NCBI GenBank assembly: GCA_034506315.1
Contig: JAPDPT010000003.1
Coordinates: 10,878 to 74,877 of the forward strand
DNA length: 64,000 nucleotides
From: Candidatus Zhuqueibacterota bacterium
GTDB taxonomy: Bacteria > Zhuqueibacterota > Zhuqueibacteria > Oleimicrobiales > Geothermoviventaceae
Direction: 5' to 3'
Shown: one piece after another, positions 3,606 through 45,060 of the stretch
How the letters are laid out: every line of letters begins with the position of its first letter
How positions within the stretch are numbered: position 1 is the stretch's first letter
Position numbers and translations under genes: made by a program
Notes under the pieces: model-generated
What the model was told of the DNA's origin: nothing
The model's input: the letters and a program-made list of their open reading frames with translations, nothing else
Database searches by the model: none

Positions 3606-4850
3606 GTGAGCGGTGCCGGGGCGGTGGAGACCATCGAAGTCAGGCCTTTGCGCAGGGGGCCTGTGTACGAGGAAGCGTGGCGAGCAACGGAAGGCAAGCG
3701 CTTCTCGGCGGGGATCTGGTGCCTCATCTGGCCGCTGGGGGATCGCTTCGGCCGCGAAGTGAACCCGGAGTTCGTACGGCCGGAGGTGGCGCTGGAATTC
3801 CTGTACCGCATCGGGGTGAAGGGGGTGAGCTTTCACTACCCACGGGAGTTCGGCCCGGTCAATGAGGCTGTTTGGCGCGATCTCCTCCAGGAGCGGGGGA
3901 TGGCGGTCACCTCGATCGCGGCGGATGTATTCAGCAGCTCCGTTTTCCGGTTCGGGGGACCCTCCAGTCACGTGGAGGAGGTCCGCGAACTGGCGACGCG
4001 GCTGAAGATCGAGGCGCAGCAGCTGTGCGTGAAATACGGTTGTGCTTTTCAGACGGACTGGGCCGGGCGGGACGGGTTTGAGGGCTACTTTCTCTACGAG
4101 CCGGAAACGCAATGGGAGTGGACGCGGACGCACTACGCGCGCCTTCTGCGAGCCGTCGAGGGACGAGCCGGCATCGCCATCGAGTTCAAGCCCTACGACG
4201 CGCCCGAACACGCCGTCATCAAGACGGCGGAAGAGGCGCTGATGATGTGCGAAGAGGTCGAGCGGACCATCCGCGACGAAATCGTGGCTGAAGTTCGGAG
4301 AGAGCTCGGAGCGGACGTGCCCACCCAGCGTTTTGCGGAAGAGGTGGCTCGCCGCTGGCAGCCCTACGAACATCGCATGGGCGTGAACATCGAGGACGCC
4401 CATGTCTACCTGGCCGGGCGTAAAGTGAGTGAGGCACTCCGCAAGTGTTTGCGGCAAGGCCGCCTCTTCCTCCGGCACGAGAACGACTCCGAGGGACGGC
4501 TGGACAATGATCTCCTGTTCGGGAGCGTTCACTTCTGGGATGCCCTCGAGTGCTCGTTGCTGCTCCGGGAACATGGCTGGGATGGCGTGCACGAGCCGGA
4601 CATTTTCCCCCAGCGTGACGACCCCCTCAAGGCCTACGTGGCTTCGCTCAACGCCATCAGTTTCTTCGACGCCCTGGCTCAGAAGCTACTCGAGGGCGAG
4701 GGGCCGGATCGTCTGGAAGCCCTGCGGTCCAGCAAGAGGGCCAGCGAGCTTTATGATCTTCTGCAGAGGGTCCTCGCGGGCGGCGTGGATTACCCACGCA
4801 TCGACCCGGAACTTGTGGATCGGTTCCGAACGGAGATAGCGAGCTCATAG
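3606..4850 (+). CDS. xylose-isomerase-family (XylA-like) TIM-barrel sugar isomerase
   Basis: 414-aa ORF with a GTG start. WAGRDGFEGY resembles the XylA WGGREGYE motif; IEFKPYDAPEH resembles XylA EPKPxEP; an FHYP stretch resembles the XylA FHD segment. It lies directly downstream of the mannosidase. Confidence 0.5.
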   Translation: MSGAGAVETIEVRPLRRGPVYEEAWRATEGKRFSAGIWCLIWPLGDRFGREVNPEFVRPEVALEFLYRIGVKGVSFHYPREFGPVNEAVWRDLLQERGMAVTSIAADVFSSSVFRFGGPSSHVEEVRELATRLKIEAQQLCVKYGCAFQTDWAGRDGFEGYFLYEPETQWEWTRTHYARLLRAVEGRAGIAIEFKPYDAPEHAVIKTAEEALMMCEEVERTIRDEIVAEVRRELGADVPTQRFAEEVARRWQPYEHRMGVNIEDAHVYLAGRKVSEALRKCLRQGRLFLRHENDSEGRLDNDLLFGSVHFWDALECSLLLREHGWDGVHEPDIFPQRDDPLKAYVASLNAISFFDALAQKLLEGEGPDRLEALRSSKRASELYDLLQRVLAGGVDYPRIDPELVDRFRTEIASS

Positions 4851-40981: not shown

Positions 40982-42634
40982 ATGAAGAGGTGGAAGCATT
41001 GCTACGGGATGGTGGGGATGGCGCTGCTCTTCCCTGCCTGGCTTGCGGCGCAAGATGAGCTCATCATCGAGCCGCCGACCGACCCGAACACGTTCCTCAA
41101 CCGGCAGATCGAAGAGGATGTGAACCGGCCGCCGGGTCGGGTTTACGTCCTCAGGCGCAACGGCATCTACCTGTGGAATGCCTTCCTGACGAACAATGGA
41201 TGGGTGCTGCGGATCAAAGCGGAGGATGGACCAGGCCAGAAGCCCGTCATTTACCTCATCACCGACCCGGCAACGGGCACCTTCCCCACCCACTTCATCG
41301 AGATGGGTGAGGACGTGTACTTGAAAGACATCATCCTCGTCGGTTTCATTGAGTCGTTGCCGGACCAGATCGCGAACAATCCGCCGCGGCTGATCCGTTC
41401 GCGTGCGGCTGGCTTTGACCTAATTCTCGATGGGTGCATCCTGACCCAGTCGCGAGGCGAGCACATCCGACTGGAGCAGGCGACGCGGGTGGTGAAGATC
41501 ACCAACTGCATCTTTGCCAACATGGGCGACCTCGGCACCTCCAACCTCGGCGCCGGCAAGCCGATCGATTTCCGCAATGCGTCCTGCGACTCCGCAATCT
41601 TCATCAACAACACCTTTGTGAACTTCCACGACCGGGTTGTTCGCCACCGGGCCAGTGTGGCGGCGATCAACTACTTCATTTTCGACCACAATACGGTGGT
41701 CAACTCTCTGGGCTTCCACGGGACGCTGGCCCTCGGTTGGCTCGGTCGAGAATGCCGCATCACCAATAATCTGTTCGTGGATCACTTCATTGCCGGCGCG
41801 GACACCGACCGAACGCGGCAGGCGGAGTTTGAGGAACCCGGCGAGATGGACCCGCGCAACGGCTTGGGTCGGATGGCATGGGTCCTCTCTGTGCCGAACG
41901 ACACAACTCACTGGGTCGTGAAGGGCAACTACTACACCGTCAGCCCGGAGGTTCAGGCGTTCTATGACCGGCACGCAGCCGAAGGGGTCCTTGGGGAAGG
42001 TCCGCCCTTGACCCACCACATTTGCAGGAGGCTCGGGGCCGATTCGTCCATGGCGTTCATCAAGGAGGCGATCGAGCTGGCCAACCGGCCACGGCCGATG
42101 GTCAATATGGCGGAATGGTACCGGGATCCGAACGGAGGGAACAAGACCAAGAATACGCCGACCCCGAAGTGGGTCCGTGAGCTGCACGACTACGACCGAC
42201 GTCCCTGGCAGTATTTTGCCGACACGCTTGATTGCAGCTACTCCACGTCCACAGCCGCCTACACCGGAGCCGTGGGTGGCTTCCCGGCAGGCGACCTGAA
42301 CTGGTTCCCTGACAAGAAGAGCCAGTGGGAGGCCTGGGTTACGGCGGTCGAGCAGAAGGCGGAAGTCCCTGCTGAGTTCGGCCTATTGCAGAACTATCCG
42401 AACCCGTTCAACCCGACCACCAAGATCCGCTTCCGCCTGGATCGGCCGGAACAGGTCACCCTGTCGGTCTACGATCTCCAGGGCCGTCGGGTGCGCACCT
42501 TGGTGTCGGGTCGTCTGGAGGCTGGCAGCCACGAGGTGACCTTCGACGCCTCCGGTCTGCCGAGCGGCGTGTACGTCTACAAGCTGTCTGCCGGCTCTCG
42601 GGAAACCGTGCGCAAGATGGTCCTGGTGCGGTAA
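40982..42634 (+). CDS. secreted right-handed parallel beta-helix protein (candidate polysaccharide lyase/hydrolase) with T9SS C-terminal domain
   Basis: Signal peptide. Parallel beta-helix repeats (ITNCIFANMG...AIFINNTFVNFHDRVV...ITNNLFVDH). The T9SS CTD reads LQNYPNPFNPTTKIRFRL...GVYVYKLSAGSRETVRKMVLVR. Confidence 0.75.
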   Translation: MKRWKHCYGMVGMALLFPAWLAAQDELIIEPPTDPNTFLNRQIEEDVNRPPGRVYVLRRNGIYLWNAFLTNNGWVLRIKAEDGPGQKPVIYLITDPATGTFPTHFIEMGEDVYLKDIILVGFIESLPDQIANNPPRLIRSRAAGFDLILDGCILTQSRGEHIRLEQATRVVKITNCIFANMGDLGTSNLGAGKPIDFRNASCDSAIFINNTFVNFHDRVVRHRASVAAINYFIFDHNTVVNSLGFHGTLALGWLGRECRITNNLFVDHFIAGADTDRTRQAEFEEPGEMDPRNGLGRMAWVLSVPNDTTHWVVKGNYYTVSPEVQAFYDRHAAEGVLGEGPPLTHHICRRLGADSSMAFIKEAIELANRPRPMVNMAEWYRDPNGGNKTKNTPTPKWVRELHDYDRRPWQYFADTLDCSYSTSTAAYTGAVGGFPAGDLNWFPDKKSQWEAWVTAVEQKAEVPAEFGLLQNYPNPFNPTTKIRFRLDRPEQVTLSVYDLQGRRVRTLVSGRLEAGSHEVTFDASGLPSGVYVYKLSAGSRETVRKMVLVR

Positions 42635-43095
42635 AGTCAGGTTCGCCGAGACGTAGCAAGAAGGTTCCGGCGAGCCGACTTCGGGGGTGCCGCGAAGCGA
42701 GAAGATCCGGCCCCAGCCAACCCCCTTGCGAGACGGGGACCAGAGGCCGCAACCGATGGGGCCGCTGCGAGGCGGTTCCGCAGGTCTCTGGTCCCCACGC
42801 GGGGGAGGGAACGGATGGGCCCACCGGACAACCCACCCTGGAGAGGTTAACTCAGCGGGAAACTTTGCGCGTTGGAATAGGCTCCCCGGGAGGGAGCCCT
42901 TTCGGCCTGGCCCGCGAAAGGGCCAGGGGGTGTTCCATGCCCCGCCCGCAGTGGTCCAAGGGAGGGCGGGGAGAGGGCCTGTCCCTTTTGGTGAGGAAGG
43001 TTGGGGGCGAGGAACTTTCTCCTTGTCCGGTCGGGGCAAAGTCGCTATCTTGGCACGCGGAGAGAAGCGGGCAGAGAGGAATTGTGAGGGCGCCC

Positions 43096-43221
43096 ATGTC
43101 GGACGTGTGGGTGTTGTGTTGCGGACCCCTTTTCCGGGAGGGAAGGGCAACGGTTTCGCCCTTCCTGAAGGCCTGTTGTCGGTCGGCTTTGCGAGCGGGT
43201 GGTAAGGGGCCGTGTAGGTAG
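43096..43221 (+). CDS. candidate Cys-rich leader peptide (41 aa) of a cysK-cysE attenuator
   Basis: ATG preceded by GAGGG at -6. The peptide is MSDVWVLCCGPLFREGRATVSPFLKACCRSALRAGGKGPCR with 5 Cys including two tandem Cys-Cys pairs. Its stop lies 23 nt before the terminator stem. The call is inferred from arrangement only. Confidence 0.3.
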   Translation: MSDVWVLCCGPLFREGRATVSPFLKACCRSALRAGGKGPCR

Positions 43222-43243
43222 CAGGACACACGGTCAGCCATTG

Positions 43244-43281
43244 GGCCCACCCGCGGAGAAGCAGGTGGGCCTTTTCTTTTT
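43244..43281 (+). terminator. intrinsic terminator 32 nt upstream of the cysK start; alternative antiterminator pairing available
   Basis: Stem GGCCCACC(cgcggagaagca)GGTGGGCC followed by CTTTTCTTTTT. Upstream GCGGGTGG (43195-43202) is perfectly complementary to CCACCCGC (43247-43254), which overlaps the 5' arm of the stem. Confidence 0.6.
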
Positions 43282-43313
43282 CGAGGGAGGCTTGCCAAGG
43301 CGAGGGTGGAGCG

Positions 43314-44237
43314 ATGGGCAAGATTTTCGACGGGATCGAGGAGACCATTGGCCGGACGCCCCTTGTGCGTCTCCGGAGGCTCGTGCCCGATAACGGGGCG
43401 GAGGTGCTCGTGAAGCTGGAGTCCTTCAACCCCATGGCTTCGGTCAAGGACCGCATCGCCGTATCGATGGTGCGTGATGCCGTGCGACGGGGTGTGCTGA
43501 AACCGGGCGGAACTCTGATCGAACCGACTTCCGGGAATACGGGGATCGGTCTGGCCTTCGTCGCGGCTGCCCTGGGGTTCCGCTTCATTGCTACGATGCC
43601 GGAGCACATGTCTGTGGAGCGCAGGAAGCTGATGGAGGCTCTTGGGGCGGAAATCGTTCTCACCCCGGCTGAGTTGGGCATGCGGGGGGCCATCGACAAG
43701 GCGCGGGAACTACAAGCGCATATTCCCAACTCCGTGATCCTTGACCAGTTCAGCAACCCCGCCAACCCAGCCATCCACGAGGAGACCACGGGTCCCGAAA
43801 TCTGGGAGGACACCGGCGGGAAGCTGGATGCCTTTGTGGCCGGGGTAGGTACGGGTGGGACGATCACGGGCGTAGCCCGCTTTCTCAAGCCGAGGCTCCC
43901 CGGTCTGCGGATTTTCGCCGTCGAACCGGCAGGTTCGCCTGTGCTTTCCGGAGGGCAGGCCGGGAGGCACGCCATTCAGGGAATCGGTGCCGGGTTTGTG
44001 CCCGCCATTCTGGAGCGGGAGTGGATCGACGGAATCATCCGTGTACGGGATGAGGACGCCTTTGCCACCGCCAGGCGCCTGGCGCGCGAGGAGGGAATCC
44101 TGGTTGGCATCAGCTCGGGTGCCATTCTCTGGGCTGCGCTCCAGGTGGCCTCACGGGAGGAATTTGCGCACCGGCGGGTCGTGGCTCTCCTCCCTGATTC
44201 CGGCGAGCGCTATCTGTCCACCGAGTTGTTCGCGTAG
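43314..44237 (+). CDS. cysK: cysteine synthase A (O-acetylserine sulfhydrylase)
   Basis: PLP-lysine region NPMASVKDRIA and the glycine-rich loop GTGGTITG; overall CysK family match over 307 aa. Confidence 0.9.
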   Translation: MGKIFDGIEETIGRTPLVRLRRLVPDNGAEVLVKLESFNPMASVKDRIAVSMVRDAVRRGVLKPGGTLIEPTSGNTGIGLAFVAAALGFRFIATMPEHMSVERRKLMEALGAEIVLTPAELGMRGAIDKARELQAHIPNSVILDQFSNPANPAIHEETTGPEIWEDTGGKLDAFVAGVGTGGTITGVARFLKPRLPGLRIFAVEPAGSPVLSGGQAGRHAIQGIGAGFVPAILEREWIDGIIRVRDEDAFATARRLAREEGILVGISSGAILWAALQVASREEFAHRRVVALLPDSGERYLSTELFA

Positions 44238-44258: not shown

Positions 44259-44909
44259 ATGATTTTCCTGGACGAGATTCGCTCCGCATTCAAATACGAC
44301 CCCGCTGCTCGGAACGTGCTGGAAGTGATCCTCGCGTACCCGGGCGTCCACGCGATCTGGCTGCATCGGATCGCCCATTTTCTTTGGCGGCTCCGGATTC
44401 CCGTGCTCCCGCGCCTGATTTCCCACTTCACTCGCTTTCTGACGGGAATCGAAATCCACCCGGGTGCAAGGATTGGACGGGGTGTCTTCATTGATCATGG
44501 GGCAGGGGTTGTGATCGGAGAGACTGCGGAGATCGGTGACGAGTGCGTCCTGTACCAGGGTGTGACCTTGGGGGGCACGAGTTTCACGAAGGGGAAACGC
44601 CATCCCACCCTTGAGGACCATGTGGTGGTCGGTGCGGGGGCGAAGATTCTGGGTAACATCCGCATCGGCCGTCACAGCCGCATCGGCGCCAATGCTGTGG
44701 TGCTGAAGTCCGTGCCGCCGCACTCGGTAGTGGTGGGGGTCCCGGGACGCATCAAGAAAGTGGCGGGCAGGGAGCCCGAGCCTCTGGAGCACGACAAGAT
44801 CCCGGATCCCATAGCGGAGGAGTTCCTGCGGGCCTACGACCGGATCGAGCAGCTTGAGCGGCTCGTGGAGGAGCTACGGCGTCAGGTGATGCGGGAAAGC
44901 GTGCCCTGA
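44259..44909 (+). CDS. cysE: serine O-acetyltransferase
   Basis: N-terminal SAT helical region plus left-handed hexapeptide repeats ([38 protein letters not shown]). Confidence 0.9.
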
Positions 44910-45060
44910 CGGATTTCGCGGCGGAGAGGAGGAGCGAGGAGGCCGCGACCGGGTCGTGCGACGGCCTTGCTTTTCGTCGCCTGCGGGGGTAAATTGCGCC
45001 CGTTGGGAAGGGCGGCCGCTGCGCTTGGCCTGGAGGTAGGTAACGACGTAGGGAGGGAAG

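Follow-up and report, generated by a model that had tools for sequence, protein, structure and literature searches.

The locus examined here raises one question: does the short, cysteine-rich open reading frame (ORF) in the roughly 670-nucleotide (nt) gap upstream of the cysteine-biosynthesis genes cysK and cysE serve as a switch for their transcription? The window, by which we mean the whole 64,000-nt stretch of DNA that was analysed, belongs to a Candidatus Zhuqueibacterota bacterium (contig JAPDPT010000003.1). An earlier note, made from the letters alone, had proposed that tandem Cys codons in this ORF gauge the supply of Cys-tRNA. Comparing sequences and folding the RNA, we consider it very likely that the leader is a Cys-tRNA-sensing leader-peptide transcription attenuator of the trp/his type that controls cysK-cysE. 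What sets it apart from chance most decisively is its conservation in eight other lineages.

Cysteine codons in the leader mini-ORF

The mini-ORF was found as it had been described, with its 41 codons, its two tandem Cys-Cys pairs and a GAGGG ribosome-binding site (Table 1). It encodes MSDVWVLCCGPLFREGRATVSPFLKACCRSALRAGGKGPCR (41 amino acids (aa), five Cys, 12%). Two Cys-Cys pairs occur in none of 517 background ORFs of 20-70 codons from a six-frame translation of the window, and only two of these ORFs attain a Cys content of 12%. The Cys share in long ORFs is 0.9%, and at least five Cys in 41 codons have a binomial probability of 0.006 at the Cys frequency of random ORFs. We place the start at ATG 43096 on the basis of the ribosome-binding site and a promoter-like motif, because the frame stays open back to TTG 42865 (118 aa). 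Initiation led by a Shine-Dalgarno (SD) sequence is plausible, since the cysK genes of these organisms carry GGAGG-type sites.

The Cys codons of the leaders are mostly TGT (38 TGT and 5 TGC over the nine lineages described below), whereas genes of the GC-rich lineages favour TGC (148 TGC and 52 TGT in the genes of the window), and the TGT excess is significant in the three GC-rich leaders (P = 2e-5). A single tRNA(Cys) with the anticodon GCA is expected to decode both codons, reading UGU through wobble. The bias would fit selection for the wobble-read, slower-decoded codon; a constraint from RNA structure may be an alternative cause.

Terminator and antiterminator

A strong predicted terminator stands before cysK at 43243-43281, as had been claimed, and ends 32 nt upstream of the cysK start. 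The consensus terminator scan skipped its hairpin solely because the loop exceeds 8 nt. The 5' arm (segment 3) contains CCACCCGC, the exact reverse complement of GCGGGTGG within the mini-ORF (segment 2); this complementarity had been noticed earlier, but its distance from the second Cys pair is 15 nt and not 16 nt. A helper pairing joins GCTTT (43186-43190) with GAAGC (43258-43262) in the terminator loop, and the complete window pairing reads GCGGGUGG:CCACCCGC + GCUUU:GAAGC. Folding predicts that segment 2 pairs with the segment 3 region (43243-43262) to the exclusion of the terminator. The two mutually exclusive conformers of the earlier note both fold well, with none of 200 shuffles as good for either; the antiterminator conformer (43186-43263) has a free energy of -37.9 kcal/mol (z = -3.4). 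Segments 2 and 3 form a stronger duplex than do 95% of shuffles and 98.7% of genomic windows.

Under the proposed mechanism, transcription would begin near 43058, and a ribosome starting at ATG 43096 would trail RNA polymerase. When charged tRNA(Cys) is scarce, the ribosome would stall at the tandem Cys codons (43117-43122 or 43174-43179) and leave segment 2 free to pair with segment 3 once this has been made, so that no terminator would form and polymerase would read through into cysK-cysE. When Cys-tRNA is plentiful, the ribosome would pass segment 2 and reach the stop codon (43219-43221), either occupying the segment or standing between segments 2 and 3; segment 3 would then pair with segment 4, and transcription would end at the U-tract. 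Translation of the mini-ORF, stalling of the ribosome, coupling of transcription to translation and the response to cysteine are what we infer from this layout. If the mechanism is correct, a change of segment 2 from GCGGGTGG to GCCCCTGG would mean constitutive termination.

Table 1 Features of the cysK-cysE leader region (positions in the window)
Feature	Position	Strand	Remarks
Upstream hairpin, 11-bp arms	42735-42745 / 42786-42796		core of an extended stem-loop of about 90 nt, 42721-42808
Putative promoter TTGTCC-17-TATCTT	43023-43051	+	low confidence; 45 nt 5' of the ATG; 8/12 consensus matches
SD-like GAGGG	43086-43090	+	5 nt 5' of the mini-ORF ATG; read from sequence
Leader mini-ORF	43096-43221	+	41 codons + stop; ATG 43096, TAG 43219-43221; 5 Cys codons (4 TGT, 1 TGC)
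First tandem Cys-Cys, TGT TGC	43117-43122	+	codons 8-9; read from sequence
Hairpin in ORF, between Cys pairs, GGGAAGGGC...GCCCUUCC	43140-43166	+	predicted
Second tandem Cys-Cys, TGT TGT	43174-43179	+	codons 27-28; 15 nt 5' of segment 2 core
Segment 2, antiterminator 5' strand	43186-43202	+	core GCGGGTGG at 43195-43202
Intervening hairpin GGCCGUGU...ACACGGUC	43208-43235	+	predicted; stop codon 43219-43221 in loop
Terminator hairpin GGGCCCACC...GGTGGGCC	43243-43271	+	-22.4 kcal/mol, z = -3.5, 0/200 shuffles as stable
Segment 3, terminator 5' arm	43243-43254	+	contains CCACCCGC at 43247-43254
Segment 4, terminator 3' arm	43263-43271	+	
U-tract TTTTCTTTTT	43272-43281	+	read from sequence
cysK (predicted cysteine synthase A, 307 aa)	43314-44237	+	first regulated gene; Pfam PF00291 (PALP) match and source name
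cysE (predicted serine O-acetyltransferase, 216 aa)	44259-44909	+	second operon gene; Pfam Hexapep match and source name

The leader in related lineages

Protein searches with CysK and CysE, followed by contig look-ups, provided eight related, KSB1/Calditrichota-like lineages (B-I, the window being lineage A). Lineage B (L082-L089) has a CysK 87% identical to that of the window and shares its synteny. Lineage C (L090; CysK 83%) has a different upstream gene, and lineages D, E and F (L091-L093, L095 and L096; CysK 74-76%) have yet another. Lineages G, H and I (L218, L219 and L220) are AT-rich (43-46% GC), one of them labelled Calditrichaeota by NCBI; L218 and L219 carry a lone cysE (CysE 67-68%), and L220 carries cysK-cysE (CysE 65%).

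In all eight relatives, a Cys-rich short ORF followed by a terminator (hairpin and T-run) lies within the last ~200 nt before the cysteine gene. The relatives' ORFs contain 3-7 Cys, with a CC, CCC, CxC or CxCxC run, and are preceded by GGAG/GGTGA-type ribosome-binding sites; they range from 27 to 41 codons in size. The peptides are MRTMGCCSQIMAWNLLWACACLCCVSARRAGGLSQCS in L082-L089 (CC at codons 6-7), ...VCACVCTCACPAMYRLWRAGPQPDSG in L090, MIFRPTRACAAEACTCCSRQDRVGEVRGVT in L091, MTSQPTRAYAAAACTCCDRHDRVGEVHVVT in L095, VTPTRINAAVACTCCGRHCRVGEVHTVT in L096, MIRAPHKMCMCCPMALFVKQQAWRCALS in L218, MKNSHPNNCMCCQMCPLHGQHAWWCDLCHL in L219 and MKHIFIAACCCQNACFAKRAAWRCGLS in L220. Otherwise the leader sequences of the nine lineages have diverged, and the same design is kept; conservation of the mini-ORF in related genomes, a check put forward with the original proposal, is thus found in eight further lineages. 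The element goes with cysK/cysE and not with the neighbouring genes, because the upstream genes of L090 and L091 differ and L218 and L219 have it before a lone cysE.

Beyond the Cys run, the conserved residues are only those encoded by the RNA-pairing segments, namely PTR and RVGEV (L091/L095/L096), AWRC (L218/L220) and RAGG (window/L082), which argues that the leader peptide as such is not under selection.

Met and Cys codons are interleaved in the leaders before the two lone cysE genes (KMCMCCPM and NCMCCQMC; L218 2825-2911 and L219 167-259, respectively), and these two leaders may sense both sulfur amino acids jointly.

A scan of metagenome contigs with the pattern GCCCACCCG-N(4-14)-GTGGGCYTTTT returned unrelated terminators, none of which adjoined cysK among the matches listed.

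Conservation of the alternative pairing

The pairing between segments 2 and 3 recurs with different sequences. L082 has a two-part pairing of 18 bp (UGGGCUGU:ACAGCCCA + CGGCGGG:CCCGCCG + GCC:GGC), and in L090 the register is shifted (CGGGCGGG:CCCGCCCG). L091, L095 and L096 share the pairing CGGGTGGG/CCCACCCG (as RNA, CGGGUGGG(C/U):GCCCACCCG). The terminator motif GCCCACCCG...GTGGGC is kept in six lineages. L218, L219 and L220 differ, with the terminator GCCCCAUUGC...GCAAUGGGGC and the pairing GCGUGG(A/U)G:C(U/A)CCACGC, which extends from the inner part of the 5' arm across the loop into the beginning of the 3' arm.

The three clades could not be aligned with each other beyond the functional segments. 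Within the alignments, 94% of the cells of the 2:3 helix (D-F) and 100% (G-I) are standard pairs, a share that falls to 21-63% when one strand is slid by 1-3 columns. Covariation comprises one compensatory change from A-U to U-A (among L218, L219 and L220) and several G-C/G-U changes. The compensatory changes that the earlier note had asked about are therefore present, as that one double change and as different sequences in each clade. To judge from the sequences, a stronger argument than covariation statistics is that three unrelated sequence pairs preserve the same relationship.

We also compared the duplex formed by the 3'-terminal 60 nt of the ORF and the terminator 5' arm plus loop with dinucleotide shuffles. 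In lineages B-F it is stronger than at least 98.7% of them; in G-I, where the arm definition used clipped the pairing, the test is not significant. RNAalifold recovered the terminator and a 1:2 helix in both alignable clades (D-F and G-I). A clear segment 1 that can pair with segment 2 lies early in the ORF of L091, L095, L096, L218, L219 and L220, giving six of the nine lineages the four-segment design of the trp type. No convincing segment 1 or 1:2 helix was found by folding in the window, L082 or L090.

Ribosome position and leader folding

The spacing of the parts is similar in all nine lineages. The Cys run precedes segment 2 by 12-27 nt, which places segment 2 just in front of a ribosome whose A site holds a Cys codon. 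The stop codon lies 11-19 nt beyond the end of segment 2 (16 nt in the window), the terminator 5' arm 21-36 nt beyond the stop codon, and the gene 32-63 nt beyond the terminator (127 nt in L219). In every lineage, folding places one or two hairpins in the interval from segment 2 to segment 3. In the window, the hairpin between the two Cys pairs (43140-43166) could be a pause hairpin or a spacer.

Ribosome states were modelled by folding a stretch of RNA that starts 12 nt past the A-site codon and ends where transcription of the terminator 3' arm is about to begin. Only RNA ahead of the ribosome was folded, since helices can form across the ribosome when its footprint is simply barred from pairing. 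For a ribosome on any Cys-run codon, 8-9 of 9 core segment 3 bases (12-14 in G-I) pair with segment 2 in all nine lineages. With the ribosome at the stop codon, segments 2 and 3 no longer pair and the fold of lowest energy is the terminator, again in nine of nine. The predicted folds of every lineage thus agree with the claim that a stalled ribosome leaves the antiterminator free and that one at the stop codon lets the terminator form.

Weighing the proposed attenuator against its alternatives

Several points weigh against a Cys-sensing attenuator. All support for it is computational, and predicting minimum-energy folds after removing everything behind the ribosome is crude. Any stall 5' of segment 2 gives the same fold, so Cys specificity rests on codon content alone. 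The earlier note had the terminating ribosome cover segment 2, but in the window no more than 2 nt of the segment lie under a ribosome that has reached the stop codon. The ribosome occupies segment 2 while it reads the last ~11 codons and, on terminating, has its place between segments 2 and 3. The window leader has no evident segment 1, and its untranslated RNA is predicted to form the 2:3 helix before segment 4 appears. The terminated and antiterminated states are nearly isoenergetic (-41.6 versus -37.9 kcal/mol); near-equal end-state energies are usual in kinetically controlled attenuators.

On the comparative side, segment 3 (GCCCACCCG) is near-invariant in six lineages, so part of the complementarity is inherited and not re-evolved, and covariation within clades is thin (three sequences per clade, one double change). 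The start codon of the L090 leader is uncertain. The outgroups L097 (CysK 67%) and L221 (CysE 61%) lack the leader. L094 (CysK 85%) shows no GCCCACCCG-type terminator or T-run in the 136 nt available upstream and is uninformative; its attenuator is either further upstream or lost.

Among the alternatives, a switch that works without translation would have a riboswitch or an RNA-binding protein (TRAP, PyrR or T-box-like) set the choice between terminator and antiterminator, the Cys codons being incidental. Alternative pairings are common to all attenuators, the untranslated window RNA can already adopt both states, and the leaders hold further conserved hairpins of unassigned role. The intervening hairpins, however, vary in number and sequence between clades, and no structured core is common to the clades beyond segments 1-4 and the Cys codons. 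A search of Rfam with 42500-43450, the exclusion of known riboswitches and T-boxes called for by the earlier note, gave nothing at gathering score (at E <= 10 there are four chance matches, E 0.2-6.9, far below gathering), and neither the leaders of the eight related loci nor those of four Clostridia loci have an Rfam match. Such a switch would also leave the conserved frame, start, SD sequence, stop position and Cys codons unexplained, and we regard it as very unlikely.

It is equally improbable that Cys-tRNA is sensed and the output is another one, either translational attenuation or coupling with masking of the cysK SD sequence, or Rho-dependent polarity. The only experimentally dissected Cys upstream ORFs (uORFs) act on translation (bioRxiv 10.1101/834739), and Actinobacterial Cys leaders lack terminators (PMC1262725), as do, in any obvious form, two Clostridia leaders described below (L045 and L080). 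Here, a strong hairpin with a U-run follows the ORF in nine of nine lineages. The cysK SD sequence lies 20-50 nt past the terminator, outside the predicted alternative pairings, and the Cys codons are not complementary to it; in the predicted folds of the window, the SD region (43300-43310) does not pair with the Cys codons.

Coincidence would mean an ordinary terminator or structured 5' untranslated region (UTR) beside a spurious, untranslated Cys-rich frame that senses nothing. The genome is GC-rich with many long spurious ORFs, the mini-ORF frame itself is open for 118 codons, gene callers contradict each other (+ strand in L001, - strand in L082), and the duplex test on the window by itself is borderline (P about 0.05 versus shuffles). 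Against this stand the start, Cys run, segment 2 and stop at constant spacing in nine lineages, AT-rich ones included, while the surroundings diverged, together with the absence of two Cys-Cys pairs from the background ORFs and the TGT codon bias, which make coincidence exceedingly unlikely. That the mini-ORF encodes a functional Cys-rich micropeptide (metal- or redox-active, or a partner of CysK/CysE), co-transcribed ahead of a leaky terminator, is scarcely credible: Cys-rich small proteins exist and the CC...CC and CxCxC spacing recalls metal-binding motifs, but conservation beyond the Cys run is limited to the RNA-pairing segments, length and sequence otherwise drift, and there is no Pfam match.

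Promoter and limits of the leader

The sigma-70 scan called no promoter at the leader, TTGTCC-17-TATCTT being too weak. This promoter-like block is among the few stretches conserved between the window and L082 (TTGCGC-17-TATATT in L082), and a TAnnTT-type motif is found 35-72 nt 5' of the short ORF start in the eight other lineages (for example TTGCAA-17-TACATT in L090). Judged by its sequence and position, the block may be the leader promoter that sets the putative transcription start. The leader portion of the cysK-cysE transcript would be ~220 nt, with ~36 nt of putative 5' UTR before the ATG.

The 11-bp hairpin in the upstream part of the gap was found as reported, but the gap of ~670 nt as a whole is not the leader, to which only ~43020-43313 belongs. 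The hairpin (42735-42796) was rejected as a part of the leader, since it is kept only with the same upstream gene and is absent in L090 and L091. Its extended stem (42721-42808) lies ~90 nt past the stop of the gene for a protein with a type IX secretion system (T9SS) sorting tail, has no U-run and no Rfam match, and is kept in L082 and L083 with compensatory changes (e.g., G-C to A-U). By this distribution, the stem belongs with the preceding gene and not with the leader; it may serve that gene as a 3'-UTR element, a stabiliser or a terminator, or be an RNA of unknown kind.

The consensus scan also found a terminator-like hairpin, GGGCGGGGAGAGGGCCTGTCC followed by CTTTTGG, in the middle of the gap (42964-42993), which could end the upstream transcript before the leader promoter.

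Longer ORFs over the leader region (172 and 118 aa on the + strand, 251 and 126 aa on the - strand) were rejected as genes because they have no Pfam match, the gene calls of relatives differ in strand, and the lengths of the indels that separate the window from L082 are not multiples of three. The mini-ORF likewise matches no Pfam family. Public gene calls over the leader comprise a 149-aa protein on the + strand (L001 364-813, window ~42756-43205) and a 182-aa protein on the - strand (L082-L087 and L089, 2279-2827); these contradictory calls are probably spurious GC-rich ORFs. They serve as a warning for annotators, as gene callers put spurious genes of 150-180 aa on the leader.

Operon and neighbouring genes

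The identities of CysK and CysE are assigned from the Pfam matches (PALP and Hexapep) and source names in Table 1. In a protein search, the window CysK is identical to a protein that NCBI names cysteine synthase A from a candidate division KSB1 metagenome-assembled genome (MAG). The 87%-identical CysK of L082-L089 (3001-3963) has the same start and is called as 320 aa, versus 307 aa in the window; its C-terminal extension runs over the cysE start at 3947. The consensus terminator scan found a terminator-like site 3' of cysE (44951-44967). Upstream of the leader are encoded a TonB-dependent receptor and the protein with the T9SS sorting tail, and downstream of cysK-cysE are Yip1, DUF2752 and AP-endonuclease-2.

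Cys-codon leaders outside the family

As a control set, we used 78 unrelated cysK loci of other phyla (55-63% identity), taken from a contig scan with CysK, among the matches listed. Two of them, both from Oscillospiraceae MAGs, have an unrelated Cys-codon leader upstream of cysK (L017 2828-2968 and L052 2832-2964). These leaders have a promoter of the TTGACA-17-TATGAT type, an SD sequence and the ORF MHIANVIVMNTCCCGICACRCQRRRVP or MSFAIVMNTCCGICACRCQRRRMP (pattern M..IVMNTCC(C)GICACRCQRRR(V/M)P), followed by the terminator GCGGCGATGCT...AGCATCGTC and a T-run. The terminator 5' arm GCGGCGAUGCU is complementary to CAGCGUCGUCGC within the ORF, and the ORF-internal CAGCGTCGTCGC is likewise complementary to the 5' arm. 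Folding predicts the antiterminator with the ribosome at the Cys codons and the terminator with the ribosome at the stop codon.

Two Clostridia MAGs have Cys-rich uORFs before cysK (MKFNSSYFRCRCCSSRFPIPYPL in L045, about 2905-2976; MWRQIPMKIRIRQRRCCRCV in L080, about 2860-2922) with good sigma-70 promoters and no obvious terminator, which may be translational Cys attenuators.

From their sequences, Cys-codon leaders before cysK seem to have arisen more than once. We think it fairly likely that classical Cys attenuators form an uncatalogued class for cysK/cysE that arose convergently, consisting of a KSB1/Calditrichota-like family and an Oscillospiraceae family, with a preference for UGU and with Met/Cys interleaving in two lineages (MCMCC). 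If so, cysteine biosynthesis would have its first described classical transcription attenuator; neither family is in Rfam. A conserved Cys attenuator before cysK/cysE would also mean that KSB1/Calditrichota-like bacteria, which are known only from MAGs, regulate the synthesis of sulfur amino acids via tRNA charging. The family is compact, and its natural variants make it suited to in vitro dissection. The family and its Oscillospiraceae analogue suggest that Cys-codon uORFs with a terminator behind them would reward a systematic search.

Comparison with known systems

The leader resembles the trp, his, leu, thr, ilv and pheA attenuators of Escherichia coli and Salmonella in having a short ORF in which codons for the end product are enriched, an intrinsic terminator ahead of the first structural gene and an antiterminator strand that overlaps the terminator 5' arm, with the 1:2/2:3/3:4 design in six of the nine lineages. 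It differs from them in the amino acid (cysteine) and the phylum (KSB1/Calditrichota-like), and it has no sequence similarity to them. Whereas the trp ORF stops before segment 2, the ORF here runs through segment 2 and stops 11-19 nt beyond it.

In Firmicutes, Cys T-box leaders distinguish uncharged from charged tRNA(Cys) and set the choice between terminator and antiterminator ahead of cysteine genes. In contrast to the leader described here, a T-box (RF00230) binds the tRNA itself, with no translation involved, and is marked by a conserved specifier loop and T-box sequence; no T-box match was found in the window leader.

Among the amino acids with textbook leader-peptide transcription attenuation, cysteine is a conspicuous gap. 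Searches of the open-access literature turned up no Cys leader with a terminator ahead of cysK/cysE, nor any such leader in KSB1 or Calditrichota; the one Cys uORF of the terminator type that they did yield was predicted for cysS (PMC8632094). The earlier note knew of no Cys leader of this logic; that statement does not stand, given three precedents.

The closest is the uORFC-8-2 motif upstream of cysS in Rhodobacterales, a predicted attenuator with a tandem Cys uORF and an intrinsic terminator with a U-run (Brewer et al. 2021, PMC8632094). In both systems, two tandem Cys codons are followed by a U-run terminator, and both are proposed to read the supply of Cys-tRNA. Going by the published description of uORFC-8-2, we set the present leader apart from it: the motif controls cysS in alpha-proteobacteria and its Cys codons are predominantly UGC, whereas here cysK/cysE are controlled and UGU dominates. 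Its Cys codons (at about codons 14-15) are inside stem 1 of a two-stem motif, whereas those described here lie outside the stem that competes with the terminator (PMC8632094).

In mycobacteria, leaderless small ORFs (sORFs) encoding polycysteine, Ms5788A and, before the Mycobacterium tuberculosis cysK1 operon, Rv2334A, were demonstrated to exert translational control, the poly-Cys tract pairing with the SD sequence of the next gene (Canestrari et al. 2020, bioRxiv 10.1101/834739). That paper stated that uORF-mediated attenuation for cysteine was previously undescribed. As here, Cys uORFs precede cysteine-metabolism operons; attenuation is relieved at low cysteine, and two consecutive Cys sufficed (bioRxiv 10.1101/834739). 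The mycobacterial sORFs are leaderless and without an intrinsic terminator, whereas the present ORF is SD-led and followed by a U-run terminator, and its antiterminator is apart from the Cys codons.

Candidate Cys leader peptides of Actinobacteria are likewise short ORFs with Cys runs upstream of cysteine genes, namely cys operons or cbs (Seliverstov et al. 2005, PMC1262725). They have no conserved hairpin or terminator, and Rho-dependence was suggested for them (PMC1262725), whereas the leader described here has a canonical terminator/antiterminator pair.

On these comparisons of sequence, the leader is outside the uORFC-8-2, mycobacterial and Actinobacterial families, from which it differs in gene, phylum, architecture and sequence. 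Its mechanism would be the textbook one; what is new is the combination of amino acid, gene and phylum, a matter of specialist interest rather than of surprise.

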